Notes: generated from the letters alone by a model not told the origin. DNA of 62,803 nucleotides from Actinomycetota bacterium (GCA_035535815.1 DATLPI010000056.1:1-62803), one strand, 5' to 3'; shown: positions 7,058 through 42,030, counted from the first letter of the stretch. A program made the numbers and translations.

Positions 7058-7072
7058 TCCATGCTGGACTAG
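7054..7072. repeat. Inverted repeat CTAGTCCA-tgc-TGGACTAG between convergent hutH and hutI; possible bidirectional terminator hairpin
   Basis: The 8-bp arms are read directly. The left arm contains the hutH TAG (7055-7057) and the right arm contains the hutI stop (7069-7071). No U-tract is present, so terminator function is only inferred. Confidence 0.3.
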
Positions 7073-9175: not shown

Positions 9176-9293
9176 CGGGACCCAGCCTACCGGTGGGGCC
9201 ACCCTTCGCGGTGGGTTGCCGCCCAGGGGCGTCGGACGATGTGCCGGCGCACTACACTCGCTCTTCGCCATCGAATCGAAGGAGCGCCGATCC

Positions 9294-10772: not shown

Positions 10773-10781
10773 GGGGCGGTC

Positions 10782-11513
10782 GTGGTCGACGCCGAACTCC
10801 CGCCATCTGAGCCGCGCACCGGCCCGGTGCTCGCGGTCTTCGCCCACCCCGACGACGCGGAGATCTCGGTGGGCGGCACGATCGCGAAGTGGTGCGCCGC
10901 CGGCCGAGAGGTCCATCTGTTGGTGCTGACGAACGGCGACCGCGGCTCGAGCGACCCCGCCCAAGATCGTGAGGACCTCGCGCGCATCCGATACGCCGAG
11001 ACGGTGGCCGCGGGCCAGGTCCTGGGGCTGGCGAGCGTCCGGATCCTCAGTATCCACGACGGCGAGCTGGAGAATACCGACGACGTCCGCGAGGCCGTGA
11101 CACGGCGTGTCCGCGAGGTCCGAGCCGAGACGCTCCTGTCCTGCGACCCGACGCTCATCTTCTTCAGGGACAGCTACTACAACCACTCCGACCATCGCAC
11201 CGCCGGGTTCATCGCGCTCGACTCGGTGTTCCCGGGTTCGGGCAACCCCCACTTCCACTCAGAGCATCTGGGGGAAGGCCTGGAGATCCAGGAGGTGACC
11301 GACGTCTGGCTCGGCTGGACGGACGAGCCGAACCACGTCGAGGACATCAGCGAGCATTTCCGCGCGAAGGTGGACGCCCTGGCCGAGCACGCGAGCCAGC
11401 TCGCCGAGGGCATCCGGTTCTTCGAGAAGTTCCTGGCCGAGGACGCGGTGAAGGCCGGCGAGAAGATCGGCGTCACCCACGCCGAGGAGTTCCGCGTCCT
11501 GGATCTCCGGTGA
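10782..11513 (+). CDS. PIG-L / LmbE family N-acetylglucosaminyl deacetylase
   Basis: 243 aa with the family signatures VFAHPDDAEISVGGTIAKW and YNHSDH. Confidence 0.8.
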   Translation: MVDAELPPSEPRTGPVLAVFAHPDDAEISVGGTIAKWCAAGREVHLLVLTNGDRGSSDPAQDREDLARIRYAETVAAGQVLGLASVRILSIHDGELENTDDVREAVTRRVREVRAETLLSCDPTLIFFRDSYYNHSDHRTAGFIALDSVFPGSGNPHFHSEHLGEGLEIQEVTDVWLGWTDEPNHVEDISEHFRAKVDALAEHASQLAEGIRFFEKFLAEDAVKAGEKIGVTHAEEFRVLDLR

Positions 11514-27466: not shown

Positions 27467-27676
27467 ATGGAACCGGAGGCCGCGATCCTTGCCGTGCTGG
27501 AGGCTGCGGATGGACCGCTGCATTGGACGGTGATCCAGGATCGGGCTCTGCGTGCCGGCTACCTCGATCCCTTCGAAACCCCGGATGTGCGTGGCGTAGT
27601 GGGACGCACCCTGCATGAGCTCGCGAGGGCGGGGACGATCGTCAAGGTGGAACAGGGCACGTACCGACCGGCGTAG
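27467..27676 (+). CDS. Stand-alone winged-helix (HARE-HTH-like) small protein
   Basis: 69 aa, MEPEAAILAVLEAADGPLHWTVIQDRALRAGYLDP..VGRTLHELARAGTIVKVEQGTYRPA. ATG 27467 lies 2 nt after the LLM stop. The pattern resembles the HARE-HTH domain (by eye). Confidence 0.55.
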   Translation: MEPEAAILAVLEAADGPLHWTVIQDRALRAGYLDPFETPDVRGVVGRTLHELARAGTIVKVEQGTYRPA

Positions 27677-27682
27677 CGCCGA

Positions 27683-27922
27683 TCAGGCCGGCTTCTTGCG
27701 GGGACGCCCTCGCTTCTTCGGTGCAGGCTTGGGCTTCGGGGAGGCGTTGCCCACGACCGCCTTGCGTCGCCCGGGACGTGGTTTGCGCGCACCGGCGATC
27801 GCCTCGTTGACGTGGGTGCTGCAGAGGTCCTTCACGAAGTTCCCTCGTGCGACCTTGATCGTGATCGTCTCGGCCGCCGGTCGTCCGCAGGTGTCGCAGA
27901 CCAAGATCGTCTTCTCCGCCAT
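27683..27922 (-). CDS. Small nucleoid-associated-type protein: Lsr2-N-terminal-like segment with CxxC..CxxH and a C-terminal AT-hook
   Basis: 79 aa from ATG 27922, which is preceded by GAAGGAG. Sequence: MAEKTILVCDTCGRPAAETITIKVARGNFVKDLCSTHVNEAI..KPKPAPKKRGRPRKKPA. The RGRP core AT-hook is at the C-terminus. Confidence 0.7.
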   Translation of the reverse strand: MAEKTILVCDTCGRPAAETITIKVARGNFVKDLCSTHVNEAIAGARKPRPGRRKAVVGNASPKPKPAPKKRGRPRKKPA

Positions 27923-27990
27923 GATGGGTTCTCCTTCGCGCTCGCCGTGGACGAAGGATACGTCGCCCGCAGGTCCGGGCGCCGGCCGGC

Positions 27991-28986
27991 TCAGCGCCGA
28001 TAGGCGATCGGTGAGAATCGTTCGAGCTTCTCGAAGCGATGCTCTGCCTCGACCCATCGCACCGTGCCCGACCTCGACCGCATCACCATGGAGTGCGTGG
28101 TGGCGCCGTCCGGCCAGTAGCGGACCCCTCGGAGCAGGTTCCCCTCGGTGATACCCGTGGCCGCGAAGAACACGTCGTCGCCGCTGACGAGGTCGTCCGT
28201 GGACAACACGGCGTCGACGTCGTAGCCATCGTCGACGAGCTGCTGGCGTTCATCGTCGTCGCGGGGGGCGAGGCGTCCCTGGATGGCGCCGCCGAGACAC
28301 TTGAGTGCGGCGGCCGCGATCACGCCTTCGGGCGTGCCGCCGGTCCCGATCAACAGGTCGATGCCCGACCGGGGCGCCGCGGCGGCGATGGCTCCCGCGA
28401 CGTCGCCGTCGCTGATCAGGTACACGCGAGCGCCCACGCTGCGGATGGCGGCGATGAGGCCCTCGTGCCGGGGCCGGTCGAGGACGGTGACGCTGACCTC
28501 TTCGGGCCGAACGCCCTTGGCCTTGGCGACCAGCCGAACGTTCTCCTCCGGGGAGGCGGTGATGTCGATCACGTCGGCCGCCTCGGCGCCGGCGGCGATC
28601 TTCTCCATGTACACGGCCGCTCCGGGGAAGAACATCGTGTCGCGGGGAGCGAGCGCGATCACCGCCACCGCGTTGGGTTGGCCGAGGGCGGTGAGGGTCG
28701 TTCCGTCGACGGGGTCGACCGCCACGTCGACCCCCGGGCCTTCGCCGTTGCCCACTTCCTCGCCGTTGTAGAGCATCGGCGCTTCGTCCTTCTCACCCTC
28801 GCCGATCACGACGGTGCCGTGCATCGAGACGGTGTCGATCATCAGCCGCATCGCGTCGACGGCGGCCTGGTCGGCCGCGATCTTGTCGCCGTGGCCGATC
28901 CAACGGCCGGCGGCCAGCGCCGCCGCCTCGGTGACGCGTGCCAGTTCCATCGCGAGGTTCCGGTCGGGCCGCTGCGAGTCACTCAC
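27991..28986 (-). CDS. glpX: Class II fructose-1,6-bisphosphatase
   Basis: 331 aa with [44 protein letters not shown] and [12 protein letters not shown]. Confidence 0.92.
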
Positions 28987-29038
28987 GTTCGGTGCTCCTT
29001 CGAAGGTCGTGGGGGCATGACGTGCCCGAAACGCAATC

Positions 29039-30058
29039 CTACGCGCCGGTCACCGGGTCGGGGCTCGGTGGTCGCGGCGCCGGCGCCAGGCCGCGTTCGG
29101 CGTACCAGGCCAGGGTGCGGCGGACGGTCATCTCCAGCGGCGTGTAGCGGAGGTCGAGCGCACGGCGCGCCAGCGATCCGTCGTAGCGATGGCCGTGCAG
29201 CAAGGTGCGAAGCATCTCGGGGCAGACGGTGGATCCCCTGCCCACCAGACTCGCCACGCCGCCCGTCACCGTGCCCACGACGGTTACCACCGAACGCGGA
29301 GCGAACCGGGCCCGGGCCGGCTGGCCGCAGACCCGCCGCAGCAGTTCGATCGCTTCGCTCACCCGGACCGAGGCGCCGTTGATGAGGTAGCGCTCACCCG
29401 GCGCCCCGTGCTGTTCGGCGAGCAGGTGCGCCTCGGTACAGTCGTCGACGTCGACGATCGACACATAGGTGTCCACCAGGACCGGAAGACGACCGTTCAC
29501 GAGGTCCAGGAGCAGGCGGGAAGACCCGCCGATGCGTCCCGGACCCTGCACCGACGACGGGTTCACGCAGACGACCGGCACGCCGAGTTCGGACCCCAAC
29601 GCGAGGACCTTGCGCTCGGCGAGCAGCTTCGAGCGCTCGTACTGCGACAGGAAGCTGCCGCGGTGCGGGGTGTCCTCGCGGCCGATCACGCCGCTGGCCT
29701 CGCCGATCGTGGCGGCCGACGAGGTGTGAACGACCCGTGTGACCTTGGCGGCCGAGGCCGCCCGCACCACTGCCGCCGAGCCCTCGACGTTCGCGTGCAG
29801 CATGGGCCCGGGGTCGCGCTGGCACATCGCGTTGATGCCGGCCACGTGGAAGACGGTGCGCACCCCACGCATGCCATCGAGCAGGGCGGCCGGATCGTCG
29901 AGATCGCCGCGGACCGGATGCGCCCCCAGGGAGCGCACGGTGTCGGCGGCGGCCCCGCTCCGCGCCAGCGCCTTGACGAACCGGCCTTCGGCGACCAGGC
30001 GCTGCACGAGCGCTCCGCCGACGAACCCCGATCCGCCGGTGACGAAGACGTCGCCCAC
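29039..30058 (-). CDS. NAD-dependent epimerase/dehydratase (extended SDR) family protein
   Basis: 339 aa with the Rossmann motif [13 protein letters not shown] and the catalytic motif YERSK. GTG start at 30058. Confidence 0.8.
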
Positions 30059-30063
30059 GCGGC

Positions 30064-30663
30064 TCAGCGCTCTCGGGCGCTTCGCTCGCGCCGGGCGCTG
30101 CCGGCCAACGCACCGCCGTAGCGCGCGAAGTACTCGACCGCCGACGCGACGGTGATCACCGCGGCGATCGCCATCACGACCTGGTCGAGGTGCCAGTCAC
30201 CGACCATGACGTCGGGACGCCAGATGGCCAGGAAGATGGCGAGGAACTGCACGTTCGCCTTCAACTTGCCCCAGATCGAGGGACGGATCACCGTGCCGTC
30301 CCCGGCGGTCACCGCCCCCCGGAGCCCCATGACGAGCAGCTCGCGCCCGATGATGATGAAGGCCACCCACATCGAGCACCGCCCGACGGCGACCAGCGAG
30401 ATGAGCACCCCGGATACGAGCAGCTTGTCCGCCGTCGTGTCGAGGAAGTTGCCCAGCGTGGTCGTCTGCTTCCAGCGTCGAGCCAGGCGGCCGTCGAAGT
30501 AGTCGGTGATGGCGGCGATCGCGAACAGGGTGGCTGCGGCCGGTGTGGCCCACGACACGCGGTCGCCCACCCAGATCAGGGCCATCACCACGGGCGTGAG
30601 CGCGATCCGCAGATAGGTGATGGCCTGGAGGAACGTGGCGGCTCGGTCGTCGGCGCTGGTCAT
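30064..30663 (-). CDS. pgsA: CDP-alcohol phosphatidyltransferase (CDP-diacylglycerol--glycerol-3-phosphate 3-phosphatidyltransferase-like)
   Basis: 199 aa polytopic protein. The signature D-x2-DG-x2-AR..G-x3-D-x3-D appears as DYFDGRLARRWKQTTTLGNFLDTTADKL. Confidence 0.82.
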   Translation of the reverse strand: MTSADDRAATFLQAITYLRIALTPVVMALIWVGDRVSWATPAAATLFAIAAITDYFDGRLARRWKQTTTLGNFLDTTADKLLVSGVLISLVAVGRCSMWVAFIIIGRELLVMGLRGAVTAGDGTVIRPSIWGKLKANVQFLAIFLAIWRPDVMVGDWHLDQVVMAIAAVITVASAVEYFARYGGALAGSARRERSARER

Positions 30664-30694
30664 CCGGGCATCGGGCGCATCGTAACAGCGCCTT

Positions 30695-33184
30695 TCAGAC
30701 GGCCAGCAGCGCCCGGACCTCGGACGCGGACGTGCATGCCAGCGCCTTCACGGCCAGGGCCTCGGCCTCGGGGATGTCGGTGCTGCGCACGACCTGCTTG
30801 ACCTGCCCGATCGCCGGAGCGCTCATCGAGAGTTCTCGGACGCCGAGGCCGAGAAGCAACGACGTGGCGGTGGCATCGCCCGCGAGTTCGCCGCAGACAC
30901 CGACCCAACGACCATGTGCCCGTGCGGCGACGGTCGTGCCCTCGATGAGCCGCAGCACGGCGGGATGCACCGCATCGGAGAGCGACGCCACATGTTCGTT
31001 GCCGCGGTCGGCGGCGAGCACGTACTGGGTCAGGTCATTCGTGCCGATCGAGAAGAAGTCGACGGAGGGTGCGAGGGCCGCCGCGGTGAGCGCTGCGGCG
31101 GGCACCTCCACCATGATGCCGGTCTCCAGCTGTGCGGCGCGACCCACGGCCTGTCGAGCCTGATCCAGCAGTTCGAGCGCGCGGTGGAGTTCGTCGGTCG
31201 TGGCCACCATGGGGAACATCACGCGAACCGGGAAGTCGGCCGCCACCCGGACAACGGCGCGCAGCTGCGTGAGGAGCAGGTCGGGGCGCGTCAGCCCCAA
31301 TCGCACCCCGCGCACCCCGAGGAACGGGTTCGGCTCGGCCGGCTGGCCGAGGTAGGGAAGGGGTTTGTCCGCGCCGGCATCAAGGGTTCGTAGCAGCAAC
31401 GGGCGGCCGTGGAGGGCTTCGGCGGCGAGGCGATAGGCGGCCTCCTGCTCGTCCTCGGTGGGCATGGCGTCCCGATCCATGAACAGGAACTCTGTGCGGA
31501 ACAACCCAACGCCGTCGGCGCCCTGGGCGACCGCGGGGGCCACCTCCTCGGGCGAGCCGACGTTGGCCGAAACCTCGACGGTGACGCCGTCGGCCGTGAC
31601 GGCAGGCGTGTTCGCCACGTCGCGTGCCGCGTCGGCCGCCAGGGCGGCAGCGGTACGGGCTTCCTCGAGATCGGTGAGGAGCTCGGCCGGGGGATCGACG
31701 TGGACCAGTCCACGGTCACCGTTCAGGGCGAGCGTCGTTCCGTCCTCGATCTCCATGAGTCGGTCGCCCAGGCCCACGACTGCGGGGATACCCATCGATC
31801 GGGCGAGGACCGCCGCATGGCTGGTGGGACCGCCACGTGCGGTGGCGATGCCCATGACCACGGCGGGATCGAGCCCGGAGGTGTCGGCGGGCGTGAGGTC
31901 GGCGGCCACCAAGATGCCCGGCGCATCCATCGCCGGCGCGGGTGGCTCGATCCCCAGGATGCGAGCTAGCACCTGGACGCCCACGCTCCGCAGATCGTCG
32001 GCGCGCGCTCGCAGGTACGGGTCCTCGATCGCCTCCCAGTCCCGGGCCGTGGTGTCGATCGAGGCTTGCCACGCCTGCGCCGCCGTGCGGTGATCCGCGT
32101 GGATCGCTCGCCGGGCCGGCGCGAGCAACGCATCGTCTCGGAGCAACAGCAGGTGAGCCGAGAAGATCGCTGCCTCCTGTTCCCCCGCCTTTGTCAGGAC
32201 CTCATCACGCTGGCGTTCGATGTCGGCGCCGGCTTGCTCCAGTGCGTGGTCGAGCCGCGCGATCTCGGCTGCTCCGTCGGTGGCGTCGCCTGCCGGGACC
32301 GTGAGGGCCGGCACGTGGAAGCGCTGTGCGGGCCCGCTCGCGAGGCCGGGCGAAGCCGAGAAGCCGTGGAGGGCGCCGTCGCTGAGGTCGTCGTCGGTGG
32401 CCGGGAGGGGAGGCACGGGGGCGGTCGCCTCGGGGCCGACGGCCTCCTCGTCGAAGTTCCGCGAAGCGAGCGCCTGCACGGCAGCGATCGCCTCGGCCGC
32501 CTGGGGACCGGTGGCTGCAACCTCCAGCTCGTGTCCGGTGGCGGCGCCCAGGGTGGCGATGGCGTTGAGGCTCTTCGCGTCGGCAGGCCCCCGTCCGTTG
32601 GTGAGGTCGCGCACCTGTACCAGCGCGTCGTAAGAGGACGCCGTCTGCACGAACCGAGTCGCGGGCCGGGCGTGCAGCCCGTGCGGGTTCGCGACGGTGA
32701 TCGCGGCCACGACGGCCTCTCCCTCGGGGCGGTCGCCGGTGGGCTGGTCGCTGGCAGGACCCACGTCGGCGGCCGGGGTCCCGAGGTGGGTGATCTTGCC
32801 CGCCAGGCCGCCGCGGGCCTCAGCGGCCACCGCGTCGAGCGAGGCGCCCATCTTCGCCGTGACCGCGGCCGCCACCGCGCCCTCGACCAGCGGGGCCTCG
32901 CACAGTTGGATCCGTTCGCGCTGCCCGGGTTCCAGCAGGTCGAGGGCCATCTCGGCCGACAGGACCGCACTGCCTAGGTCCATCAAGACCAGCACGCCGT
33001 CCTCGGACCACGCGCGTTCGATCGCCTGCATCACGAGGACGGCGTCGGTACCGATCGGGTGCTCGGGCATGTCGAGACCGCCCGCGGTCTCCAGGCGGAT
33101 GTCCGGACCGCCCATCTCGCGCGCGAGCTCGGCGACGCCTTCGGCGATCCGGAAGCTGTGGGAGACGATCACGATCCCGACCAC
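30695..33184 (-). CDS. dhaM: Dihydroxyacetone kinase phosphoryl-donor subunit DhaM: EIIA(Man)-HPr-full-length Enzyme I fusion
   Basis: 829 aa. The N-terminus GIVIVSHS..GVAEL is EIIA-Man-type. The HPr motif is NPHGLHARPATRFV. EI motifs are GGPTSHAAVLARSMGIP, FFSIGTNDLTQY and VGVCGELAGD. GTG 33184 is preceded by GGAGGA. Confidence 0.9.
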   Translation of the reverse strand: MVGIVIVSHSFRIAEGVAELAREMGGPDIRLETAGGLDMPEHPIGTDAVLVMQAIERAWSEDGVLVLMDLGSAVLSAEMALDLLEPGQRERIQLCEAPLVEGAVAAAVTAKMGASLDAVAAEARGGLAGKITHLGTPAADVGPASDQPTGDRPEGEAVVAAITVANPHGLHARPATRFVQTASSYDALVQVRDLTNGRGPADAKSLNAIATLGAATGHELEVAATGPQAAEAIAAVQALASRNFDEEAVGPEATAPVPPLPATDDDLSDGALHGFSASPGLASGPAQRFHVPALTVPAGDATDGAAEIARLDHALEQAGADIERQRDEVLTKAGEQEAAIFSAHLLLLRDDALLAPARRAIHADHRTAAQAWQASIDTTARDWEAIEDPYLRARADDLRSVGVQVLARILGIEPPAPAMDAPGILVAADLTPADTSGLDPAVVMGIATARGGPTSHAAVLARSMGIPAVVGLGDRLMEIEDGTTLALNGDRGLVHVDPPAELLTDLEEARTAAALAADAARDVANTPAVTADGVTVEVSANVGSPEEVAPAVAQGADGVGLFRTEFLFMDRDAMPTEDEQEAAYRLAAEALHGRPLLLRTLDAGADKPLPYLGQPAEPNPFLGVRGVRLGLTRPDLLLTQLRAVVRVAADFPVRVMFPMVATTDELHRALELLDQARQAVGRAAQLETGIMVEVPAAALTAAALAPSVDFFSIGTNDLTQYVLAADRGNEHVASLSDAVHPAVLRLIEGTTVAARAHGRWVGVCGELAGDATATSLLLGLGVRELSMSAPAIGQVKQVVRSTDIPEAEALAVKALACTSASEVRALLAV

Positions 33185-33202
33185 GACGTCCTCCGCCTCG
33201 CC

Positions 33203-33598
33203 TCAGGCCCTCGAGGCCAGGACGCCGATCAACACGAACCCGTACGCCACGGTCACCACGCCGAGCCCCACGAGTCCCTTGCTCACGAGCTGCTTGTGAC
33301 GGTCGCTGAGGCCGAAGTCGAACAGGACCGACCGCAGTCCGAGCATCGCGTGGATCGTGATCACCACGAGGAAGATCGACTCGATCACGAAGATCACCGG
33401 GTTCGCGATGTAATCGAGGACGTGCTGGTAGGTGCGGAGCCCGCCGACGGCTTCGACCACGAAATGGTGGGCCACCATGTGGATCGTGACCAGCAGCAGC
33501 AGCGCGACGCCGGTGAGGGCCGTCCAGCGCCAGGTCCTGGAGCGGTTGGGTTCGCCTGTCGGCGCGCGAGGATCCTGAGCCGGAGCCTGCATCGTCAT
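33203..33598 (-). CDS. SdhD/FrdD-like 3-TM membrane anchor subunit
   Basis: 131 aa from ATG 33598, with an ATGA overlap with the upstream gene. Three TM helices carry His residues (LLLLVTIHMVAHHFVV, IFLVVITIHAMLGLRSVLF). Trimmed from the 347-aa track ORF. Confidence 0.7.
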   Translation of the reverse strand: MTMQAPAQDPRAPTGEPNRSRTWRWTALTGVALLLLVTIHMVAHHFVVEAVGGLRTYQHVLDYIANPVIFVIESIFLVVITIHAMLGLRSVLFDFGLSDRHKQLVSKGLVGLGVVTVAYGFVLIGVLASRA

Positions 33599-34056
33599 CC
33601 CTCCGCCGTGAAGACGTGGATCGCGGAGTAGATCAGCAGGATCGCCCCGAAGGTCATCAAGGTATAGAAGAGCGCCTTCTGACGGTTCGGGACGAAGCCG
33701 CTGCCGATCAGCGCCACGCGCAGGCCGTTCAGGCCGTGCGCCAGCAGTCCGAATACCAGCAGCACGTCCAGCCCCAGGAACAGCGGGGTGGTGGCGGTCT
33801 CGAGAAACCCGTTCCACGCGGCTTCGCCTCCCAGGAGCTGGGAGAGCACGGCCAGGTGCAGGTAAAGATAGAAGACCAACCCGAGGCCGGTGATCCGGTT
33901 CAACGAGAACGCGAAGTGTCCGGTGCCGCGGCGGCGGACGTCGAACCACGCGGTGGGACCCGGCGATTTCCGCTCGACGGGGCCTTCGGCACTTCGTACG
34001 CGCAGGATCTCCTCGACCCCACTGGGGGTCTGGTCCTCGGTTCGTCGTTCGCTCAC
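33595..34056 (-). CDS. SdhC/FrdC-like 3-TM cytochrome-b-type membrane anchor subunit
   Basis: 153 aa from GTG 34056, with a GTGA overlap with the upstream gene. Motifs are FSLNRITGLGLVFYLYLHLAV and LLVFGLLAHGLNGLRVAL, as in succinate dehydrogenase cytochrome b subunits. Confidence 0.7.
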   Translation of the reverse strand: MSERRTEDQTPSGVEEILRVRSAEGPVERKSPGPTAWFDVRRRGTGHFAFSLNRITGLGLVFYLYLHLAVLSQLLGGEAAWNGFLETATTPLFLGLDVLLVFGLLAHGLNGLRVALIGSGFVPNRQKALFYTLMTFGAILLIYSAIHVFTAEG

Positions 34057-34826
34057 GTCGGGTCCTCCGATCCGACCTCGGGGATGGCCCTTCCCTGGTC
34101 TCGCCGCCGTCGGCGAAGGTCTTTGCGCAGGGCCATGATCCGCTGGGCGGGGCGCACGTTCGAGGGGCAGGCCTCGGTGCATTCGAACGCGGCATGGCAG
34201 CGCCACGCGGCGGTGTCCTGGTCCGCCCAGTCGAGCAACGTGTCACGATCGACGGTGCCGGGGTCCTCCTCCAACATCCGCTGGGCGAACGCGAGGGCCG
34301 CGGGGCCGACGTAGCTGTCGTCGGTCGCCGACACCGGACAGGCCGACAGGCAGAGGCCGCATTCGATGCAGTCCTCGAACCGCTCGAAGGCCCCGAGGTC
34401 GACGGGCACGTCGGCTTGGGGAAGGAACTCGCTGTCCCGCACGATCGCGTGCGCTTCGGGGAACCGCTCGACGAAGGACGTCATGTCGACGACGAGGTCG
34501 TTCAGCACCGGCAGGTTGGCGATGGGCTCGACGGTGACGGTGCCGCCGCCGACGTCGGCGAGCGGCGTGACGCAGGCGAGCCGCTCCCGGCCGTTCACCC
34601 GTACCCCGCAGGTACCGCAGGAGGCATGGAAGCACGAGTGCCGGAGTGCCAGCGTGGCGTCCTCGTGGAGGTGGATCCATCGGAGGGCCTCGAGCACGGT
34701 GGTGCGTGCGCCGACCGGCACCTCGTGTTCGTCGACGTGTGCTGGACCGTCGTCGCGCTTGAACCGATGCACGCGGACGCGGCGCGTCTCCTGCGTGGTC
34801 GAGGCGACCCGATCCTCGGCGCTCAT
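34053..34826 (-). CDS. Succinate dehydrogenase/fumarate reductase-type iron-sulfur subunit (SdhB/FrdB-like)
   Basis: 257 aa from ATG 34826, with an ATGA overlap with the glpA-like stop. All three cluster motifs are present: CFHASCGTCGVRVNGRERLAC (2Fe-2S), CIECGLCLSACP (4Fe-4S) and CHAAFECTEACP (3Fe-4S). Confidence 0.85.
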   Translation of the reverse strand: MSAEDRVASTTQETRRVRVHRFKRDDGPAHVDEHEVPVGARTTVLEALRWIHLHEDATLALRHSCFHASCGTCGVRVNGRERLACVTPLADVGGGTVTVEPIANLPVLNDLVVDMTSFVERFPEAHAIVRDSEFLPQADVPVDLGAFERFEDCIECGLCLSACPVSATDDSYVGPAALAFAQRMLEEDPGTVDRDTLLDWADQDTAAWRCHAAFECTEACPSNVRPAQRIMALRKDLRRRRRDQGRAIPEVGSEDPT

Positions 34827-35998
34827 GCGGCGAAGACCGCCGTGTGGGGGAGCAGGACGGTCTCGCGCGTGCGGCAGGGTTCGTCGACGCCCAGCTTCCG
34901 GCCGACCACGTCGGCGCACACCTCGGCCATGCCACGAAGGGTCGTGCCCTTGCCGCCGGTGATCGTGACGAATCCCTCGAGGCCGTCGTCGACGGCGTGG
35001 TCGATCGTCTTGAAGGTGCGCGAGAGCTCGCGTCCCGAGTCGGCGTCGTCCTTGGAACCGATCAGCGGCCGAGCCGCCGACCACGCCGAGCGGAAGGGCG
35101 CCTCGCGCACGGCGGGGACCAACATCGATCCCTCGTCGATCATGCGTTGGACGTGGTCCTGGGGAACGCCGAGGTCGTCGGGATCCTCGACCACCCACGA
35201 GCTGGTGCCCACGACCGAGAGTGCGCGCTGCGGAACCACGATGTCGCCGTCGCCCGAGGCGTGCAGGCGGTTCACCACCATGTTGCAGAGCCGGCCGCGC
35301 ACCGCGAGCATGACGCCGGGGGAGGGCCGGATCGGCACGTCCACCCCGGCCATGTGGGCGACCTGTTCCGACCAGGGGCCGGTGGCGTTGACCACGAGGT
35401 CGGCGCCGATCGTGCTCTCGCGACCGGTGACGACATCACGCACGCGCGCGCCGGTCACCACGCCGCCGCCGCGCTCGAGATCCGTGACATCGACGTAGTT
35501 GAGCAGGACCGCGCCGTTCGCCTTCGCTGTGGCGAAGAACCGTAGCGGCATCCGCATGGCGTCCATCGTGGCGTCGGGCACGCGCACCGCGACCTTCAGC
35601 TCGGGGTTGAGCATGGGCTCGAGCCGGAGCGCCTCGTCGGGCTGCAGGACCTGGGTGCGGATCCCGGTCTCTTCGCAGCCCGCCAGGAACGCCGGGAGGT
35701 AGGCCATGTCCTCGTCGGTGATGGCCACGAACAGACCGTCGTTCTCCTCGAACGAGCCGGGCGCGATGTGTCGAAGGAGCGTGTTCTCCTCGATGCACTC
35801 CACGGCCGACTCCTTGTCGTTGACGGCGTAGCGCGCGCCGCTGTGCAGCAGGCCGTGGTGCCGTCCCGTGGTCCCCGAAGTGAACTCCCCACGCTCGACC
35901 AACGTGACCTGCATGCCACGGAGCGCGAGGTCGTGCGCGAGCGCGCCGCCGGTTCCGCCGCCGCCGATGATCAGGACATGTGGGCTCGAGCGCCTCAT
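34823..35998 (-). CDS. FAD-dependent glycerol-3-phosphate dehydrogenase, GlpA-type N-terminal catalytic region only
   Basis: 391 aa with VLIIGGGGTGGALAHDLALRG, ERGEFTSGTTGRHHGLLHSGARYAVNDKESAVECIEEN, VVNATGPW and TITGGKGTTLR. It is collinear by eye with the first ~400 residues of E. coli GlpA and stops before the BFD-like C-terminal domain. Confidence 0.85.
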   Translation of the reverse strand: MRRSSPHVLIIGGGGTGGALAHDLALRGMQVTLVERGEFTSGTTGRHHGLLHSGARYAVNDKESAVECIEENTLLRHIAPGSFEENDGLFVAITDEDMAYLPAFLAGCEETGIRTQVLQPDEALRLEPMLNPELKVAVRVPDATMDAMRMPLRFFATAKANGAVLLNYVDVTDLERGGGVVTGARVRDVVTGRESTIGADLVVNATGPWSEQVAHMAGVDVPIRPSPGVMLAVRGRLCNMVVNRLHASGDGDIVVPQRALSVVGTSSWVVEDPDDLGVPQDHVQRMIDEGSMLVPAVREAPFRSAWSAARPLIGSKDDADSGRELSRTFKTIDHAVDDGLEGFVTITGGKGTTLRGMAEVCADVVGRKLGVDEPCRTRETVLLPHTAVFAA

Positions 35999-36049
35999 TG
36001 ACCGTGCATCATCGCGCCGGTTCCACGACGGCGGGTGGCCGCCGCCACG

Positions 36050-36301
36050 TCAGTCCTCCGCGGTTTCTTCCCCGCGCGCGAAGTCGCCGCGCTGCGGGGT
36101 GGTGGGATCTTCGTCCTCGTCGGTTTGACCTTCGGCGAACGTCCCCTTCTCGGTCTCCGCAGGCTCGTGATGCTCCCGCTCTTGACCCTCGGCGAAGTCG
36201 CCGTGGCGGTCCTCCTCGGGATCGTGCTTCTCCTCTGCCTGGCCTTCGGCGAAGAACCCTTCGTGCTCGTCCTTGTCTTTGTCCTTCTCGTCTTCGGTCA
36301 T
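36050..36301 (-). CDS. Small acidic, His-rich repeat protein (four G-x-F-A-E/R-G-Q/E repeats, 19-aa period)
   Basis: 83 aa from ATG 36301, with GGAG 8 nt upstream. It starts 15 nt after the glpK stop. Sequence: MTEDEKDKDKDEHEGFFAEGQAEEKHDPEEDRHGDFAEGQEREHHEPAETEKGTFAEGQTDEDEDPTTPQRGDFARGEETAED. Third positions are G/C-rich, consistent with coding. Confidence 0.6.
   Translation of the reverse strand: MTEDEKDKDKDEHEGFFAEGQAEEKHDPEEDRHGDFAEGQEREHHEPAETEKGTFAEGQTDEDEDPTTPQRGDFARGEETAED
36053..36259 (-). repeat. Intragenic tandem repeat, ~57 nt (19 codons), about 3.6 copies
   Basis: The repeat anchors GFFAEGQ, GDFAEGQ, GTFAEGQ and GDFARGE begin at residues 15, 34, 53 and 72 of the small acidic protein. 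Confidence 0.8.
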
Positions 36302-36316
36302 GTGGGGCACTCCGAT

Positions 36317-37813
36317 CTACTCGACCCAGTCGAACGTTCGGGTGACGGCCTTCTTCCAGTTCGCGTACTCGGAAGCCACCTTGTCCGCAGACATCTGGGG
36401 CTTCCACTCCTTGTCCTTGCCCCAGTACTGGCGCAGCTCGTCGGTGTCCTTCCAGAATCCGACCGCCAGGCCGGCGGCGTAGGCGGCGCCCAGCGCGGTG
36501 GTTTCGGCGATCTTCGGCCGGATCACAGGAACCTGCAACGAGTCGGCCTGGAACTGCATCAGGACCTCGTTGTAGACCATGCCGCCGTCGACCTTGAGCT
36601 CCTTGAGCGTGACGCCGGAGTCGGTTTCCATGGCGTCGAGCACCTCACGGGTCTGCCACGCGGTGGCTTCCAGGGTGGCGCGGGCGATGTGGCCCTTGTT
36701 GACGTAGCGGGTCATCCCCACGATCGCGCCGCGCGCGTCGCCCCGCCAATACGGAGCGAACAGGCCCGAGAACGCCGGCACGAAGTAGATGCCACCGTTG
36801 TCATCAACCGTCGCCGCGAGTTCCTCGATCTCCTGGGAGGTGCTGATGATGCCCAGGTTGTCGCGGAGCCACTGGACGAGGGCGCCCGCGATCGCGATGG
36901 CGCCCTCCAGGCAGTACACCGCGGGTTGGTCGCCCAGCTTCCACCCCACGGTGGTGAGCAGGCCCGACTTCGAGTGGACCAGCTCGGTACCGGTGTTCAG
37001 GAGCATGAAGCAGCCGGTGCCGTACGTGTTCTTGGCGTCACCGACGTCGTAGGCGGCCTGCCCGAAGGTTGCGGCCTGCTGATCGCCCAGGATCCCGGCG
37101 ACGGGGATGCCGGCAAGCGTGCCCTTGGCCTCACCGTAGACGGCCGAGGAGGGCTCGATCGAAGGCAGCATCGACCTCGGTACGCCGATCGCGGACAGGA
37201 GGTCGTCGTCCCAGTCGAGGGTCGCCAGGTCCATCAACATCGTGCGGCTCGCGTTCGAGACGTCGGTGACGTGGCGCCCGCCGTCGACGCCGCCGGTGAG
37301 GTTCCACACGCACCATGTGTCCATGTTGCCGAACATGAGATCGCCGGCCTCGGCGCGCGCCCGGGCACCCTCGACGTTGTCGAGGATCCAGCGGACCTTG
37401 GTGCCGGAGAAGTACGTCGCCAACGGCAGCCCGGTCTTGGCGCGGAAGCGGTCCTGACCGCCGTCGGCCGCCAGCGCATCCACGATGTCCTGCTGGCGCG
37501 TGTCCTGCCAGACCAGGGCGTTGTAGACGGGCTCACCGGTGTTCCGGTCCCACACCAGGGCGGTTTCGCGCTGGTTCGTGATGCCGATCGCGGCGAGGTC
37601 GCTCGCGGAGATGTTCGCATTCTTCAACGCGCCGTCGATCACGTCGGTGGCGCGGGCCCAGACCTCTTTCGGGTCGTGTTCGACCCATCCGGGGTTGGGG
37701 AAGATCTGCTCGTGCTCCTTCTGGTCGATGCCCACGACGCTGCCGCCGTGGTCGAAGATCATGAACCGCGTGCTCGTGGTGCCTTGGTCCAGCGCTCCCA
37801 CGTAGTCAGCCAT
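36317..37813 (-). CDS. glpK: Glycerol kinase
   Basis: 498 aa with [30 protein letters not shown] and GTGCF. A strong RBS, GAAGGAGG, precedes ATG 37813. Confidence 0.97.
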
Positions 37814-37873
37814 GAGGGACCTCCTTCTCGTCGTCGGCTGCTTCCTTCAGTTACATCTTGTGCCTGTCGGGGC

Positions 37874-38515
37874 TCAAGCGTCGCCGGCCCAAACGTCGGC
37901 GGCGGTCTTCAACAACAGGTAGGAGGAGGTGGCGCCGGGGTCCTGATGCCCCGCGCTGCGCTCTCCCAGGTAGCTCGCGCGACCCTTGCGGGCCACCAGC
38001 GGGATCGTGTCCTTCATGCCCTGTTCGCCCGCTTCGGCCGAGCGCCGGAGCGCCGCGGGCAGCTCCGCTCCGTCGGCGACGGCCGCCGCGAACGCGTCGC
38101 GCGCGGGGATCAGGGCATCGAGCATCGTCTTGTCTCCCGCTTCGGCCTTGCCTCGGGCCTGGACACCCGTGACGGCGGCCTCCAACGCCGCCTGCCAGTC
38201 GGGCGCCGTGAGCTCGTCCTTGCCGGCCGTGGCCACACCCAGCTGCAGGAACAGCGTGCCGTACAACGGCCCACCGGCGCCTCCGACCGTGGAGACCAGG
38301 GTCATCCCCACGGTCTTGAACATGGCGCCGATGTCGTCGCCGGAAGGGGTCGCGTCGAGCTTGCCGATGACGGCCTGCATGCCGCGATCCATGTTGATGC
38401 CGTGGTCGGCATCGCCGATGGCCGAGTCGAGTTCGGTGAGGTAGGTCTTCTGGTCGGCGATCACCTCAGCGAAGGTCTTGACCCATCGGAGGACGTCTTC
38501 GTACGGCACGCTCAT
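37874..38515 (-). CDS. dhaL: Dihydroxyacetone kinase ADP-binding subunit DhaL (DAK2 domain)
   Basis: 213 aa with LDSAIGDADHGINMDRG, GGAGGPLYGT and ARKGRASYLGERSAGHQDPGA. Confidence 0.93.
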   Translation of the reverse strand: MSVPYEDVLRWVKTFAEVIADQKTYLTELDSAIGDADHGINMDRGMQAVIGKLDATPSGDDIGAMFKTVGMTLVSTVGGAGGPLYGTLFLQLGVATAGKDELTAPDWQAALEAAVTGVQARGKAEAGDKTMLDALIPARDAFAAAVADGAELPAALRRSAEAGEQGMKDTIPLVARKGRASYLGERSAGHQDPGATSSYLLLKTAADVWAGDA

Positions 38516-38561
38516 CGGATCCGCCCCCTCCCGAAGGCCGGCTCGTCGTGATGGATGTGGG

Positions 38562-39563
38562 TCAGGCGCCCCACCGCAGTCCGGCGGTCTTGACCGGGGC
38601 GTCCCACAGCTTGGTGTAGTCGTCGTTCAGCTTCAGCAGCGTGATCGAGCAGCCGGCCATCTCGAGCGACGTGATGTAGGAGCCGATCAGGTTCCGGGTG
38701 ATCGTGATGCCACGACCCTTCAGGAACTTGTTCAGCTCGTTGTAGACCACGTACAGCTCGATCAGCGGGGTGCCGCCCATGCCGTTGACGAACGCCAGCA
38801 CGTTGTCCCCGCTGGAGAACGGCAGGTCCTCGACGACGGCGGTGGCCATCAGCTCGACGATCTCGGAGGCGGGCTTCATCTTCATGCGCTCGCGCCCTGG
38901 TTCGCCGTGGATCCCCACGCCCATCTCGATCTCGTCGTCGCCGAGCTCGAAGGTGGGAGTGCCGGCTGCCGGGACGGTGCACGACGTCAGCGCCATGCCC
39001 ATGGAGCGGGCGTTCGCGTTGACCTCGCGGCAGATGTCGGCGACCTCCTTGAGCGGTCGCTGTTCTTCGGCCGCCGCACCGGCGATCTTCTCCATCAGCA
39101 CGGTGGCGCCGACACCGCGGCGTCCGGCCGTGTACAGGGAGTCCTGTACGGCGACGTCGTCGTCGACCACGACCGCCTCGACGTCGGTGCCTTCGGAGCG
39201 ACACAGCTCGGCCGCCATCTCGAAGTTCATCACGTCGCCGGTGTAGTTCTTGACGATGTGCACGACGCCCGCGCCACCCTCGACGGCCTTGGTGGCCGCC
39301 TCCATCTGGTCCGGCGTGGGGGAGGTGAAGACCTCTCCGGGACATGCGGCGTCGAGCATGCCCTTGCCGACGAACCCGCCGTGCATCGGTTCGTGGCCCG
39401 AGCCACCACCGGACAACAACGCGACCTTGCCTTGGATCGGGGATTCCTTGCGGGTGATGTAGTAGGGGTCGTAGAAGACCTTGACGAGATCGCCGTGGGC
39501 GGCCTCGATCCCCTGGAGTTCCTCGCGAACGACGTTCGCGGGGTCGTTGATCAACTTCTTCAT
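38562..39563 (-). CDS. dhaK: Dihydroxyacetone kinase substrate-binding subunit DhaK (DAK1 domain)
   Basis: Contains [27 protein letters not shown] and [10 protein letters not shown] prefer ATG 39563 over the track GTG 39590. Confidence 0.93.
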
Positions 39564-39635
39564 GCGTTGCCTCGCTTCCGTGCTCGTCACAGGGCCTGTC
39601 GCTGCCGACCCTGCGACGAGCGTTCGTGTCGTCGT

Positions 39636-40427
39636 TTACAGGTCGAAGATCGCCTTGGCTGCCAGTGCCCCGAGGACGCCGCCCACGATGGGTCCGACCA
39701 CCGGGATCCACGAGTACGCCCAATCCGAGCTCCCCTTCCCGGCGATCGGAAGGATGGCGTGCATGATCCGCGGGCCGAGGTCTCGGGCCGGGTTGATGGC
39801 GTAGCCGGTGGGACCGCCGAGCGCCAGGCCGATCCCGAGCACGAGGAGCGCAACCGCCAGTCCTGGGAGGGTGCCGAAGGTCGAGCCGCCGATGATCTGG
39901 GTGAGCACGATCGCCACGATCCCGAACACCAGCATGAAGGTGCCGATGATCTCGGTGATCAGGTTCGCCACGGTGTTGCGGATCGCGGGACCGGTGGAGA
40001 AGACGGCGAGCTTGAGTCCCGGGTCTTCGGTTTCGGCCCAGTGTGCGAGGTAGGCGAGGTACACGAGGGTTGCTCCGATGAAGGCGCCGACGAACTGCCC
40101 GGCGATCAACGTGGGGACATCCGCCCACTTCACGGCGTCGATCGAGGCGAGCCCGATCGTGACGGCCGGGTTCAGCTGCGCGACCCCACCTGTCACCGCG
40201 AGGCTCGTGATGACACCGAACAACACACCCAGGGCCCACGCCCAGGTGATGACGATCCATCCGCCGTTCTGAGACTTCGACTTGTTGAGCAGCACACCGG
40301 CAACCACGCCGTCACCGATCAACACCAAGACGGCCGTGCCGACCACCTCTCCGAGGAACATCTGGGTGACCACCCCCTCCTGTTTCGCTCCCTCGGTGAT
40401 CGAGGGCAGCTGTCGGGCGATAGCCAA
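39636..40427 (-). CDS. glpF: MIP-family aquaglyceroporin (glycerol uptake facilitator)
   Basis: Six TM helices and two NPA boxes (LNPAVT, INPARD). The start is uncertain: TTG 40427 as in the track, or ATG 40361. Confidence 0.9.
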   Translation of the reverse strand: MAIARQLPSITEGAKQEGVVTQMFLGEVVGTAVLVLIGDGVVAGVLLNKSKSQNGGWIVITWAWALGVLFGVITSLAVTGGVAQLNPAVTIGLASIDAVKWADVPTLIAGQFVGAFIGATLVYLAYLAHWAETEDPGLKLAVFSTGPAIRNTVANLITEIIGTFMLVFGIVAIVLTQIIGGSTFGTLPGLAVALLVLGIGLALGGPTGYAINPARDLGPRIMHAILPIAGKGSSDWAYSWIPVVGPIVGGVLGALAAKAIFDL

Positions 40428-40474
40428 AAACGTTCAGCCTTGGATGTCAATAGTGCGATAGGACCGAATGCCTC

Positions 40475-40510
40475 TTGACGTTGCCAGGCGTTGTTCGGCA
40501 TAGTCGAACA
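40475..40510 (+). promoter_or_regulatory. Candidate promoter (TTGACG-18 nt-CATAGT) overlapped by inverted repeat TGTTCG-n7-CGAACA
   Basis: Seen in the glpF/dhaL-paralog divergent intergenic region. TTGACG is at 40475-40480, CATAGT at 40499-40504, and the inverted repeat at 40492-40510. The function is inferred only. Confidence 0.25.
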
Positions 40511-40558
40511 CGATGGTGGCGAAGCAGTGACGAGTTGACACGGAGGTGGGTCGGTCGG

Positions 40559-41236
40559 ATGGTGCATCTGGTGAGTGACAGCCCGTCGACGACCCATGCG
40601 GCGCTGGACGGAACCACCGTGCGTCGGTGGATCCGCGAGAGCGCCGATGTCTTCTCTTCACAGCGCGACTACCTCACCCAGCTCGACGCCGCGATCGGCG
40701 ATGCCGACCACGGCATCAACATGGATCGAGGCTTCTCGGCGGCGGTCGTCGATCTCGACGCGGTGGACGGGTCCGCGCCGGGCGAACTGTTGACGCGCGT
40801 CGGCTCCACGCTGGTCTATCGCGTGGGCGGCGCGGCCGGGCCGCTGTTCGGTGGGTGCTTCCGCCAGGTGGGCAGTGCGCTCGGCACCGCCGAGACCTTC
40901 GACGCCGAAGATCTCCTGAAGGCGCTCCGTGCGGGCCTGGATGCGATCCAAGGACTGGGTGCAGCGGTCGAGGGCGACAAGACGATCGTCGATGCATTCG
41001 TGCCGGCCCTGCAGGCGTTCGAACGGGATCTGCGCGCCGGACGCGACGTCGGACACGCAGCCCACCGCGCCGCGGAGGCCGCGAAGGAAGGATCGCGCGA
41101 AACGATCCCCCTGCAGGCGCGGAAGGGGCGCGCGTCCTACCTGGGACCGCGAAGCGTGGGGCATCAGGATCCGGGTGCCACATCCACGGCGCTGCTCTTC
41201 GCCACCTTGGCCAAGGCGGTCGACGAGCAGCCGTGA
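40559..41236 (+). CDS. Second DhaL-type (DAK2 domain) protein, paralog of the operonic dhaL
   Basis: 225 aa from ATG 40559, with GGAGGTGGG upstream. Contains LDAAIGDADHGINMDRG, GGAAGPLFGG and ARKGRASYLGPRSVGHQDPGA. No adjacent DhaK-type gene on this strand. Confidence 0.85.
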   Translation: MVHLVSDSPSTTHAALDGTTVRRWIRESADVFSSQRDYLTQLDAAIGDADHGINMDRGFSAAVVDLDAVDGSAPGELLTRVGSTLVYRVGGAAGPLFGGCFRQVGSALGTAETFDAEDLLKALRAGLDAIQGLGAAVEGDKTIVDAFVPALQAFERDLRAGRDVGHAAHRAAEAAKEGSRETIPLQARKGRASYLGPRSVGHQDPGATSTALLFATLAKAVDEQP

Positions 41237-42030
41237 GCGCCACCGGTGAGCGGCGAGGAACGATCCAGTCCGTCGACCGCGCCGCCCGCATCCTGAAGGC
41301 GCTCGGTTCGGGATCCTCGAGACTCGGCGTCACCGAGGTCGCGGATCGGCTCGGCCTCGCGAAGGGGACCGTCTACGGCCTCCTTCGCACCCTCGAAGCG
41401 CAGGAGTTGGTGGAACAGGATCCCGAGTCGGGCAAGTACCGACTCGGGCCGGCCATGCTCCAGCTGGGCAACGCCTTCCTCGACAACCACGAGCTCCGCG
41501 GCCGCTCGCTGCTGTGGGCGGACTCCCTGGCCTCGCGGGTCGGTGAAGCCGTGCGCGTGGGTGTGCTGCACGGGCCGAACGTCTTGATCGTGCATCACGT
41601 GTTCCGACCGGACAACTCCGTGCAGATCCTGGAGGTGGGCGCGTCCATCCCGTGGCACGCATGTGCGCTCGGCAAGGCGATCGTCGCCTACCTCGGCGAG
41701 GACGAGCGGGCGGCCCTGGTGCGCCACGACCTCGCGCCGCTCACCGGGCGGACGGTCGTGGATCCCGAGCGGCTGCATCTGGCGCTCACCACGGTCGTGC
41801 ACGACGGTCTCGCCCTGGAGGACCAGGAGGCCATCGTGGGGGAGGCGGAGATCGCCGCCGCGGTGTTCGACCACCGCGGCTACCCCGCGGGCGCCGTCGG
41901 TGTGGTGGGCCCGGTCGAACGGCTCGTCCCCGAAGGCAAAACGTCGGCAGCGTTGTCGGCCGCCGTCCGCGAAACCGCTCGGGGGTTGTCCCGTGACATG
42001 GGCGCCGGCCGCGTGGCCGCGCGCGGCTGA
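41233..42030 (+). CDS. IclR-family transcriptional regulator
   Basis: 265 aa from GTG 41233, with a GTGA overlap with the dhaL paralog. The HTH reads SVDRAARILKALGSGSSRLGVTEVADRLGLAKGTVYGLLRTLE, followed by a C-terminal IclR effector domain. Trimmed from track ORF 40627. Confidence 0.88.
   Translation: MSATGERRGTIQSVDRAARILKALGSGSSRLGVTEVADRLGLAKGTVYGLLRTLEAQELVEQDPESGKYRLGPAMLQLGNAFLDNHELRGRSLLWADSLASRVGEAVRVGVLHGPNVLIVHHVFRPDNSVQILEVGASIPWHACALGKAIVAYLGEDERAALVRHDLAPLTGRTVVDPERLHLALTTVVHDGLALEDQEAIVGEAEIAAAVFDHRGYPAGAVGVVGPVERLVPEGKTSAALSAAVRETARGLSRDMGAGRVAARG

Follow-up and report, generated by a model that had tools for sequence, protein, structure and literature searches.

A predicted glycerol-3-phosphate:menaquinone oxidoreductase joining a short GlpA to SdhBCD-like subunits in a bacterial glycerol operon

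Introduction

What enzyme is encoded by four overlapping genes that lie downstream of the glycerol kinase gene glpK in an Actinomycetota bacterium, the first resembling the catalytic subunit of a glycerol-3-phosphate (G3P) dehydrogenase and the other three the iron-sulfur and membrane-anchor subunits of succinate dehydrogenase? The genes, numbered 1 to 4 in what follows, occupy positions 33203-35998 of a stretch of 62,803 nucleotides (GCA_035535815.1, DATLPI010000056.1:1-62803), which we call the window. An earlier note, made from the sequence of the window alone, read the block as a hybrid in which a GlpA-type dehydrogenase takes the place of SdhA on a complex II chassis. The profile matches, cofactor ligands and synteny described here support that reading, with the assembly of the four proteins predicted from their sequences. 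We propose, with a probability of roughly three in four, that genes 1-4 encode a single membrane-bound glycerol-3-phosphate:menaquinone oxidoreductase, which would complete the respiratory glycerol catabolism of the operon.

Results

Layout of the block

The four genes lie on the minus strand (33203-35998) and are chained by start/stop overlaps. Read directly from the strand, the stop of gene 1 overlaps the start of gene 2 in an ATGA (34826-34823), genes 2 and 3 overlap in a GTGA (34056-34053) and genes 3 and 4 in a second ATGA (33598-33595). The three overlaps listed in the earlier note are thus real, on the minus strand, and the NCBI gene calls concur (HVD69697/96/95/94), the start of gene 4 being placed there two codons later. 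The products are named 'FAD-dependent oxidoreductase', '2Fe-2S iron-sulfur cluster-binding protein', 'succinate dehydrogenase' and 'hypothetical protein'. The G+C content of the window is about 70%; a chance arrangement of open reading frames (ORFs) is ruled out, as about 70 of 80 related loci show the four genes in this order.

The flavoprotein

Gene 1 (34823-35998, minus strand; 391 amino acids, aa) encodes a flavin adenine dinucleotide (FAD) protein that profiles and a structural model assign to the GlpA-type glycerol-3-phosphate dehydrogenases, without the BFD domain. It matches the Pfam DAO profile at 168 bits and is collinear with GlpA, having a D-amino acid oxidase (DAAO)-fold FAD domain with an N-terminal GxGxxG. 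The NCBIfam GlpA model TIGR03377 scores 445.2 bits, with residues 7-385 covering profile positions 1-378 of 530, and the GlpA model PRK11101 scores 382.3 bits over profile positions 7-386 of 548. Both values fall under the respective equivalog cut-offs (552.8 and 425) because the C-terminal third, that is the BFD domain of about 150 residues, is missing; Pfam finds no Fer2_BFD in the protein, which ends at position 378 of TIGR03377. As far as these profiles tell, gene 1 is a GlpA cut short just before the BFD-like [2Fe-2S] domain, which is what had been seen by eye from its collinearity with the first 400 or so residues of GlpA.

Other flavoprotein families fit far less well. The GlpD models reach 89 bits at most in NCBIfam, against 445 for GlpA, and the GlpD C-terminal domain DAO_C has no Pfam match in gene 1. 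The SdhA, FrdA and NadB models give no match among the NCBI curated models, and the Pfam FAD_binding_2 match is confined to residues 7-49. An AlphaFold2 model built on an alignment of 115 family sequences (predicted local distance difference test, pLDDT, 96.6; predicted template modelling score, pTM, 0.94) retrieves with Foldseek, as best matches, E. coli GlpD, Streptococcus GlpO and the B. halodurans G3P dehydrogenase, then other DAAO-fold oxidases; there is no complex II flavoprotein among the matches. An SdhA, FrdA or NadB identity for gene 1 is ruled out by the NCBIfam scores together with the Foldseek matches, and with it goes the concern, raised in the earlier note, that the flavoprotein might turn out to be of the SdhA/FrdA kind. 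Residues R56, R310, R327 and K350 align to R54, R317, R332 and K354 of E. coli GlpD, which we take to be the residues that contact the substrate (2QCU/2R4E work), and each of the four is either invariant or conserved to 90% or more in the 115-sequence family alignment.

The iron-sulfur subunit and the membrane anchors

Gene 2 (34053-34826, minus strand; 257 aa) encodes an SdhB/FrdB-family iron-sulfur subunit, with Pfam matches to Fer2_3 (93 bits) and Fer4_8 (45 bits). It passes the SdhB/FrdB family model TIGR00384 dhsB (177.8 bits, cut-off 88), and the nearest solved structures are E. coli FrdB (1KF6_B, 129 bits) and the SdhB of M. smegmatis Sdh2 (6LUM_B, 116 bits). The TfrB model PRK06259 is matched at 128 bits, and the ferredoxin-like part bears a weak resemblance to the N-terminus of GlpC (41 bits). 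All three SdhB/FrdB cluster motifs reported earlier are present: C-x4-C-x2-C-x11-C for 2Fe-2S (C65/C70/C73/C85), C-x2-C-x2-C-x3-CP for 4Fe-4S (C153/C156/C159/C163) and C-x5-C-x3-CP for 3Fe-4S (C210/C216/C220), and not one of the 11 cysteines varies among 76 orthologues.

Gene 3 (33595-34056, minus strand; 153 aa) and gene 4 (33203-33598, minus strand; 131 aa, or 129 aa in the NCBI call) encode an SdhC-like cytochrome b anchor and an SdhD-like anchor, both with three transmembrane segments. Each contains three hydrophobic segments and lies above the Pfam Sdh_cyt cut-off of 25.8 (34.8 bits for gene 3, 47.5 bits for gene 4). The profile searches proposed in the earlier note thus return DAO/GlpA for gene 1, Fer2_3 with Fer4_8 for gene 2 and Sdh_cyt for genes 3 and 4, and the His-bearing, SdhC/SdhD-like character that it gave to the last two holds down to individual ligand positions. 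The solved structure nearest to gene 3 is 6LUM_C (E = 2.7e-10), and gene 4 matches both 6LUM_C and 6LUM_D. In di-haem M. smegmatis Sdh2, His C47, C87, D65 and D107 are the axial ligands of haems bD and bP (6LUM; PMC7447783). H67 and H107 of gene 3 align to His C47 (bD) and His C87 (bP) and are invariant in 69 orthologues; H40 and H83 of gene 4 align to His D65 (bD) and His D107 (bP) and are invariant in 70 orthologues. This match of four invariant histidines to the Sdh2 haem ligands leads us to predict that the anchor formed by genes 3 and 4 is a type A, two-haem cytochrome b.

The absence from the window of sdhA, frdA, glpB and glpC, the usual partners, stated earlier by eye, was borne out by three approaches. 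The SdhA covalent-FAD motif was not found in the window; none of the 10 window ORFs of 451-648 aa that were scanned is a FAD_binding_2/Succ_DH or CCG protein; and tblastn of the window with GlpB and CCG queries gave nothing significant. Among the related loci there is no sdhA in the flanks (±8 kb), and no glpB or glpC downstream of gene 1 in those examined.

Spread of the block and variants around the short GlpA

A scan of one genome per species identified 202 loci with a close relative of gene 1, of which the 80 best were fetched. These belong to uncultured Actinomycetota, Solirubrobacterales and Chloroflexota, and no cultured isolates were seen among the orthologues found. Genes 1-4 follow one another in the same order in about 70 of the 80, and most keep the whole glpF-dhaK-dhaL-glpK-...-dhaM context; the gene 1 homologue follows glpK directly, within the glpF/dha operon, in the window and about 60 loci. 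The co-occurrence survey that the earlier note had recommended therefore finds the block kept together in a glpK-containing operon. Over L001-L080 the flavoprotein keeps far closer to the window than its partners do, with identities of 72-98% for gene 1, 48-93% for gene 2 and about 42-96% for genes 3 and 4.

A wider search, over 1.84 billion cluster representatives, gave 518 clusters with E below 1e-30. Among the top 150 representatives the BFD cysteine motif is present in 59 of the 68 proteins of 471-700 aa and in none of the 36 of 370-430 aa. Genomic context could be seen for thirteen short-GlpA lineages. In seven of them an SdhB-like gene comes directly after the short glpA; of the others, one has CoxG, as in the characterised Sulfolobus type, four have neither partner and one is a fragmented glpABC. 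The seven with an SdhB-like partner are the window clade, P0327/L083, P0180/L081, P0178/L082, P0182/L085, P0205/L087 and P0209/L089, so that the pairing persists at 46-51% identity (L081, L082, L083, L085, L087, L089). In a rough neighbour-joining tree, which is not robust, the SdhB-partnered short forms stand apart from the BFD-containing and CoxG forms, the CoxG-type homologue P0196 (434 aa, L088) being on a separate branch.

Length alone can mislabel a GlpA as truncated, as the fragmented lineage illustrates. P0238 (408 aa, L090 4001-8077) was rejected as a short GlpA, being part of a canonical glpABC split, probably by assembly frameshifts, into small ORFs that encode in turn a piece of BFD, pieces of FAD_binding_2 and a Fer4/CCG GlpC. 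A natural GlpA-SdhB fusion was sought among the long family representatives and none was found; the proteins of about 950-1000 aa that were scanned are GlpA-GlpB fusions. P0190, P0195, P0256 and others (920-1000 aa) carry DAO and FAD_binding_2, most of them with Fer2_BFD in between, and appear to be such fusions.

What follows the SdhB-like module differs between lineages. Two Sdh_cyt genes are present in L081 and L089, as in the window. In L083, from a Bacillota metagenome-assembled genome (MAG; JADBKO010000042.1), a single 571-aa protein (6220-7935) carries SdhB-like iron-sulfur domains and two Sdh_cyt domains, and it sits 3' of glpK and of a 409-aa short GlpA. In L066, L068, L070, L072, L077 and L080, all from Solirubrobacterales and Actinomycetes MAGs, behind the short glpA lies a gene for a protein of about 527 aa with Fer2_3, Fer4_8 and CCG domains (at about 9185-10790 in each), which stands in for genes 2-4; its third motif, CxxCxxCxxxCP, has the fourth cysteine, which predicts a 4Fe-4S instead of a 3Fe-4S third cluster. 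One MAG, MFD02159.bin.2.87, holds both the SdhBCD and the CCG type (L067, L068). Finally, two-gene versions consist of a short GlpA and an SdhB-like protein of 221-241 aa (L082 5001-6937, L085 5001-6883, L087 5001-6887), with no anchor gene adjacent to the SdhB-like gene; the enzymes may be soluble or held to the membrane in some other way, and perhaps act on another substrate. The glpK gene adjoins the block in most related loci and also in the distant L081, L083 and L087; it is not adjacent in L082, L085 and L089.

The SdhB-like module is thus constant while the membrane module varies, and this is the strongest indirect argument that the electron acceptor of the short GlpA is the SdhB-type subunit. 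One might go further and suppose that bacteria hold a large modular branch of respiratory G3P dehydrogenases, in which an SdhB-type subunit is the obligatory acceptor of a BFD-less GlpA and the outputs are interchangeable (di-haem SdhCD, fused SdhCD, CCG or none), a generalisation for and against which we see the balance as even.

Comparison with known systems

Full-text literature searches returned one description of this architecture, and no member that had been purified or assayed. Schmerling et al. (2025, Commun Biol 8:539, PMC11962113) drew a 'GlpA-SdhBCD' complex for Thermofilum pendens and relatives, which they proposed as a membrane-anchored G3P dehydrogenase on the basis of synteny and modelling, and which is uncharacterised; in the T. 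pendens GlpA homologue next to nothing follows the DAAO fold at the C-terminus. The question of precedent, left open in the earlier note, is thereby answered in two parts: the architecture has been in print since 2025, for Thermofilum-related archaea, and it stands there as a synteny prediction, not as a characterised enzyme. As described in that paper, the archaeal system agrees with ours in its extension-less GlpA followed by sdhB-, sdhC- and sdhD-like genes. The window system differs from it in being bacterial, in recurring in about 70 of 80 loci and in lying inside a glpF-dhaKL-glpK-...-dhaM operon. The same authors state that bacterial glpA co-occurs consistently with glpB and glpC (PMC11962113), and in an earlier GlpA/GlpD phylogeny a group mixing archaeal and bacterial sequences had been pointed out, with no discussion of partners.

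With E. coli GlpABC the window system shares a GlpA-type catalytic subunit (the first 378-386 profile positions) and a predicted iron-sulfur route to the quinone pool. In contrast, gene 1 has no BFD domain, there is no GlpB or GlpC, and the predicted acceptor is an SdhB-type subunit with haem-b anchors and not a CCG protein; as the BFD, GlpB and GlpC features all fail, this is not a canonical GlpABC. Nor is it a succinate dehydrogenase, as there is no SdhA. Among solved structures, M. smegmatis Sdh2, a succinate:menaquinone reductase of type A with two haems (6LUM; PMC7447783), lies nearest to genes 3 and 4 and comes second, after E. coli FrdB, for gene 2; it has in common with the window the three iron-sulfur motifs and all four haem-ligand histidines. 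It differs in its flavoprotein, which in the window is of the DAAO-fold GlpA type with no SdhA, and in a Trp of SdhB and a Tyr of SdhD that are replaced in the window; no SdhF was identified in the window system, in contrast to Sdh2.

Two further enzymes resemble gene 1 in part. E. coli GlpD (2QCU) has the same fold (TM-score 0.82, normalised to the query) and the four counterpart residues named above, and differs in having a C-terminal domain, no partner subunits and direct quinone reduction. The characterised GlpA-CoxG of Sulfolobus acidocaldarius likewise lacks BFD, GlpB and GlpC and has an unconventional membrane partner, but its tail is about 50 aa long, its anchor is CoxG, and it has no iron-sulfur subunit or haem (PMC11962113). 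As for the TfrB / type E SdhB-CCG layout, it is matched by the proteins of about 527 aa in the sister loci and not by the window; the partner flavoprotein in TfrAB is SdhA-like, whereas in the sister loci it is a short GlpA.

The glycerol operon

The block is embedded in an operon read from one strand in the order glpF-dhaK-dhaL-glpK-86-aa ORF-genes 1-4-dhaM/HPr/EI. All of the genes named here are on the minus strand unless stated otherwise. The first is a glpF-like gene for a glycerol facilitator of the MIP family (39636-40427; Pfam MIP 125 bits), followed by those for the dihydroxyacetone kinase subunits DhaK (38562-39590; Dak1 444 bits) and DhaL (37874-38515; Dak2 187 bits), all three being syntenic, and by glpK (36317-37813; FGGY_N 255 bits and FGGY_C 160 bits).

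Between glpK and gene 1 lies a small acidic ORF of 86 aa (36050-36310), rich in His, Asp and Glu, which has no match in Pfam or NCBIfam and contains three to four repeats of G-[DST]-F-A-E-G-Q. Its G+C by codon position is 0.78/0.37/0.79. By tblastn it matches about 40 related loci, with the repeat motif kept and the number of repeats variable, nearly always between glpK and gene 1 and elsewhere in the locus in L070/L072. It may encode a protein that assists the dehydrogenase or its assembly.

Starting 18 bp downstream of gene 4, and in the same position in nearly all actinobacterial loci, is a gene whose domain profiles indicate an 829-aa fusion of a DhaM-type phosphoryl donor to HPr and a full-length Enzyme I (30695-33184; EIIA-man, PTS-HPr, PEP-utilisers_N, PEP-utilizers and PEP-utilizers_C). 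As its Enzyme I is complete, with N-terminal, mobile and phosphoenolpyruvate (PEP)-binding domains, the operon supplies DhaKL with a PEP-dependent phosphoryl relay of its own. The annotated neighbours of the block include no glycerol dehydrogenase gene.

Divergent from the operon, on the plus strand, is an IclR-family gene (40627-42027; HTH_IclR 62 bits at residues 215-266, IclR_C 117 bits), which by analogy with GylR, the IclR-type regulator of Streptomyces, is a candidate regulator of the glycerol operon. Its longest ORF has 467 aa with the helix-turn-helix (HTH) starting only at residue 215, so that the start is probably well downstream, or else there is an unusual N-terminal extension. A promoter/terminator scan of 27500-41000 gave counts at chance level, with none of the terminator-like sites in the intergenic gaps of the operon, and Rfam and tRNA scans of the window gave no matches.

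Discussion

Taken along the operon, the following route suggests itself. GlpF would bring in glycerol, GlpK would phosphorylate it to G3P, and the BFD-less flavoprotein of gene 1 would oxidise G3P to dihydroxyacetone phosphate (DHAP) at its FAD. Having lost its own BFD domain, and with no GlpB or GlpC present, gene 1 would hand its electrons in trans to the N-terminal [2Fe-2S] cluster of the SdhB-like gene 2, whose N-terminal 2Fe-2S domain would substitute for the lost BFD domain. The electrons would then pass through [4Fe-4S] and [3Fe-4S] to the Sdh2-like di-haem cytochrome b of genes 3 and 4, and on to menaquinone, the quinone of Actinomycetota and Chloroflexota. The physical assembly of the four proteins, the direction and path of the electrons, the choice of menaquinone as acceptor and the use of a proximal or a distal quinone site are what we infer; the route is built on the conserved substrate-binding and cofactor-ligand residues, the domain identities and the gene order.

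Several observations weigh against this proposal. Gene 2 falls under every SdhB/FrdB equivalog cut-off, and is therefore a divergent member of the family. No solved structure pairs a DAAO-fold flavoprotein with an SdhB-type subunit, and the docking of gene 1 on gene 2 is here a prediction. The evidence on sdhA and glpBC covers the window and the ±8 kb flanks of the related loci. None of the gene 2 orthologues has a Trp between the cluster-2 CP and GPA, where M. smegmatis SdhB has YW, and right behind the invariant Asp94 of gene 4 all orthologues carry Phe or Leu, where SdhD has Tyr. Lastly, electron transfer from G3P to menaquinone is exergonic (about -190 mV to -74 mV), so that a di-haem transmembrane anchor is not obviously needed.

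Some of these observations bear on the alternative that survives best, although we consider it unlikely: that the complex is a G3P dehydrogenase whose di-haem anchor carries electrons across the membrane, to a distal quinone or an outer acceptor, in a manner coupled to the membrane potential or consuming it. The Trp and Tyr at these positions in E. coli complex II are part of the wall of the proximal quinone site. Their loss in all orthologues, together with the invariance of the four histidines that correspond to the bP and bD ligands of Sdh2, hints that a distal quinone site may be reached via the haems, and transmembrane transfer has a precedent in the di-haem succinate:menaquinone reductases. 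However, G3P oxidation by menaquinone needs no input of energy, the sister variants with CCG or without an anchor indicate that transmembrane transfer is not essential to the family, and the mapping of the proximal site relies in part on the E. coli numbering.

It is less probable still that the complex forms and acts on some other small phosphorylated or hydroxy/amino compound instead of G3P. Such a substrate would be in keeping with the score of gene 1 under the GlpA equivalog cut-off (445 against 552.8 bits) and with the short-GlpA/SdhB pairs of L082, L085 and L089 that are not beside glpK. But the loss of the 150-residue domain accounts for the low score, and what does match aligns with GlpA from end to end; the equivalents of the presumed substrate-contacting residues of GlpD are conserved; and gene 1 lies directly 3' of glpK, in the glpF/dha operon, in the window and about 60 loci. 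Another substrate is hence unlikely for the window, and the case is less certain for L082, L085 and L089. Succinate is likewise an unlikely substrate, to judge from a block that has no dicarboxylate-binding flavoprotein.

Least probable of all, by a small step, is that genes 2-4 are ordinary succinate dehydrogenase or fumarate reductase subunits serving an SdhA or FrdA encoded elsewhere, with gene 1 as an independent GlpD-like or CoxG-type enzyme: gene 2 does pass the general SdhB model and genes 3 and 4 pass Sdh_cyt, the anchors do resemble those of Sdh2, some short GlpA homologues are solitary or paired with CoxG, and the search for sdhA covered the window and the locus flanks, but a stop/start overlap ties gene 1 to gene 2, the four genes keep together in a glycerol operon in some 70 species of two phyla, SdhB-like genes stand behind the short glpA even without anchors or with CCG in their stead, no sdhA adjoins any such locus, gene 2 does not reach any SdhB/FrdB equivalog cut-off, and gene 1 has neither the GlpD C-terminal domain nor a CoxG neighbour. 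The position of genes 2-4 directly behind the short glpA in two phyla, and of SdhB-like genes behind homologues at 46-51% identity, argues in particular against service to an SdhA elsewhere.

The preferred reading thus remains that of one G3P:menaquinone oxidoreductase. The architecture itself had already been predicted, before only in a few archaea, and the window is a bacterial and widespread example of it; what is new here is its presence and abundance in bacteria, the assignment of the di-haem anchor, and the modular family around the short GlpA. The idea is therefore one already in print, and the functional part of our account is a deduction from sequence. The finding would correct the published claim that bacterial glpA always travels with glpBC (PMC11962113), and it sets bacterial relatives, with many sequenced orthologues, beside the hyperthermophilic archaeal example.

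If the four proteins do assemble, many uncultured Actinomycetota and Chloroflexota of soil would have in them a respiratory entry for carbon from glycerol, and the complex II chassis would be seen to work with a flavoprotein of another fold, which would bear on the modular evolution of respiratory dehydrogenases. The system is hidden by current annotation, so that metabolic reconstructions could miss a G3P dehydrogenase and miscount succinate dehydrogenase. If the view of a modular branch is right, G3P oxidation by the di-haem form may involve transmembrane electron transfer. More generally, the iron-sulfur and haem chassis of complex II would then not be tied to flavoproteins of the SdhA family.

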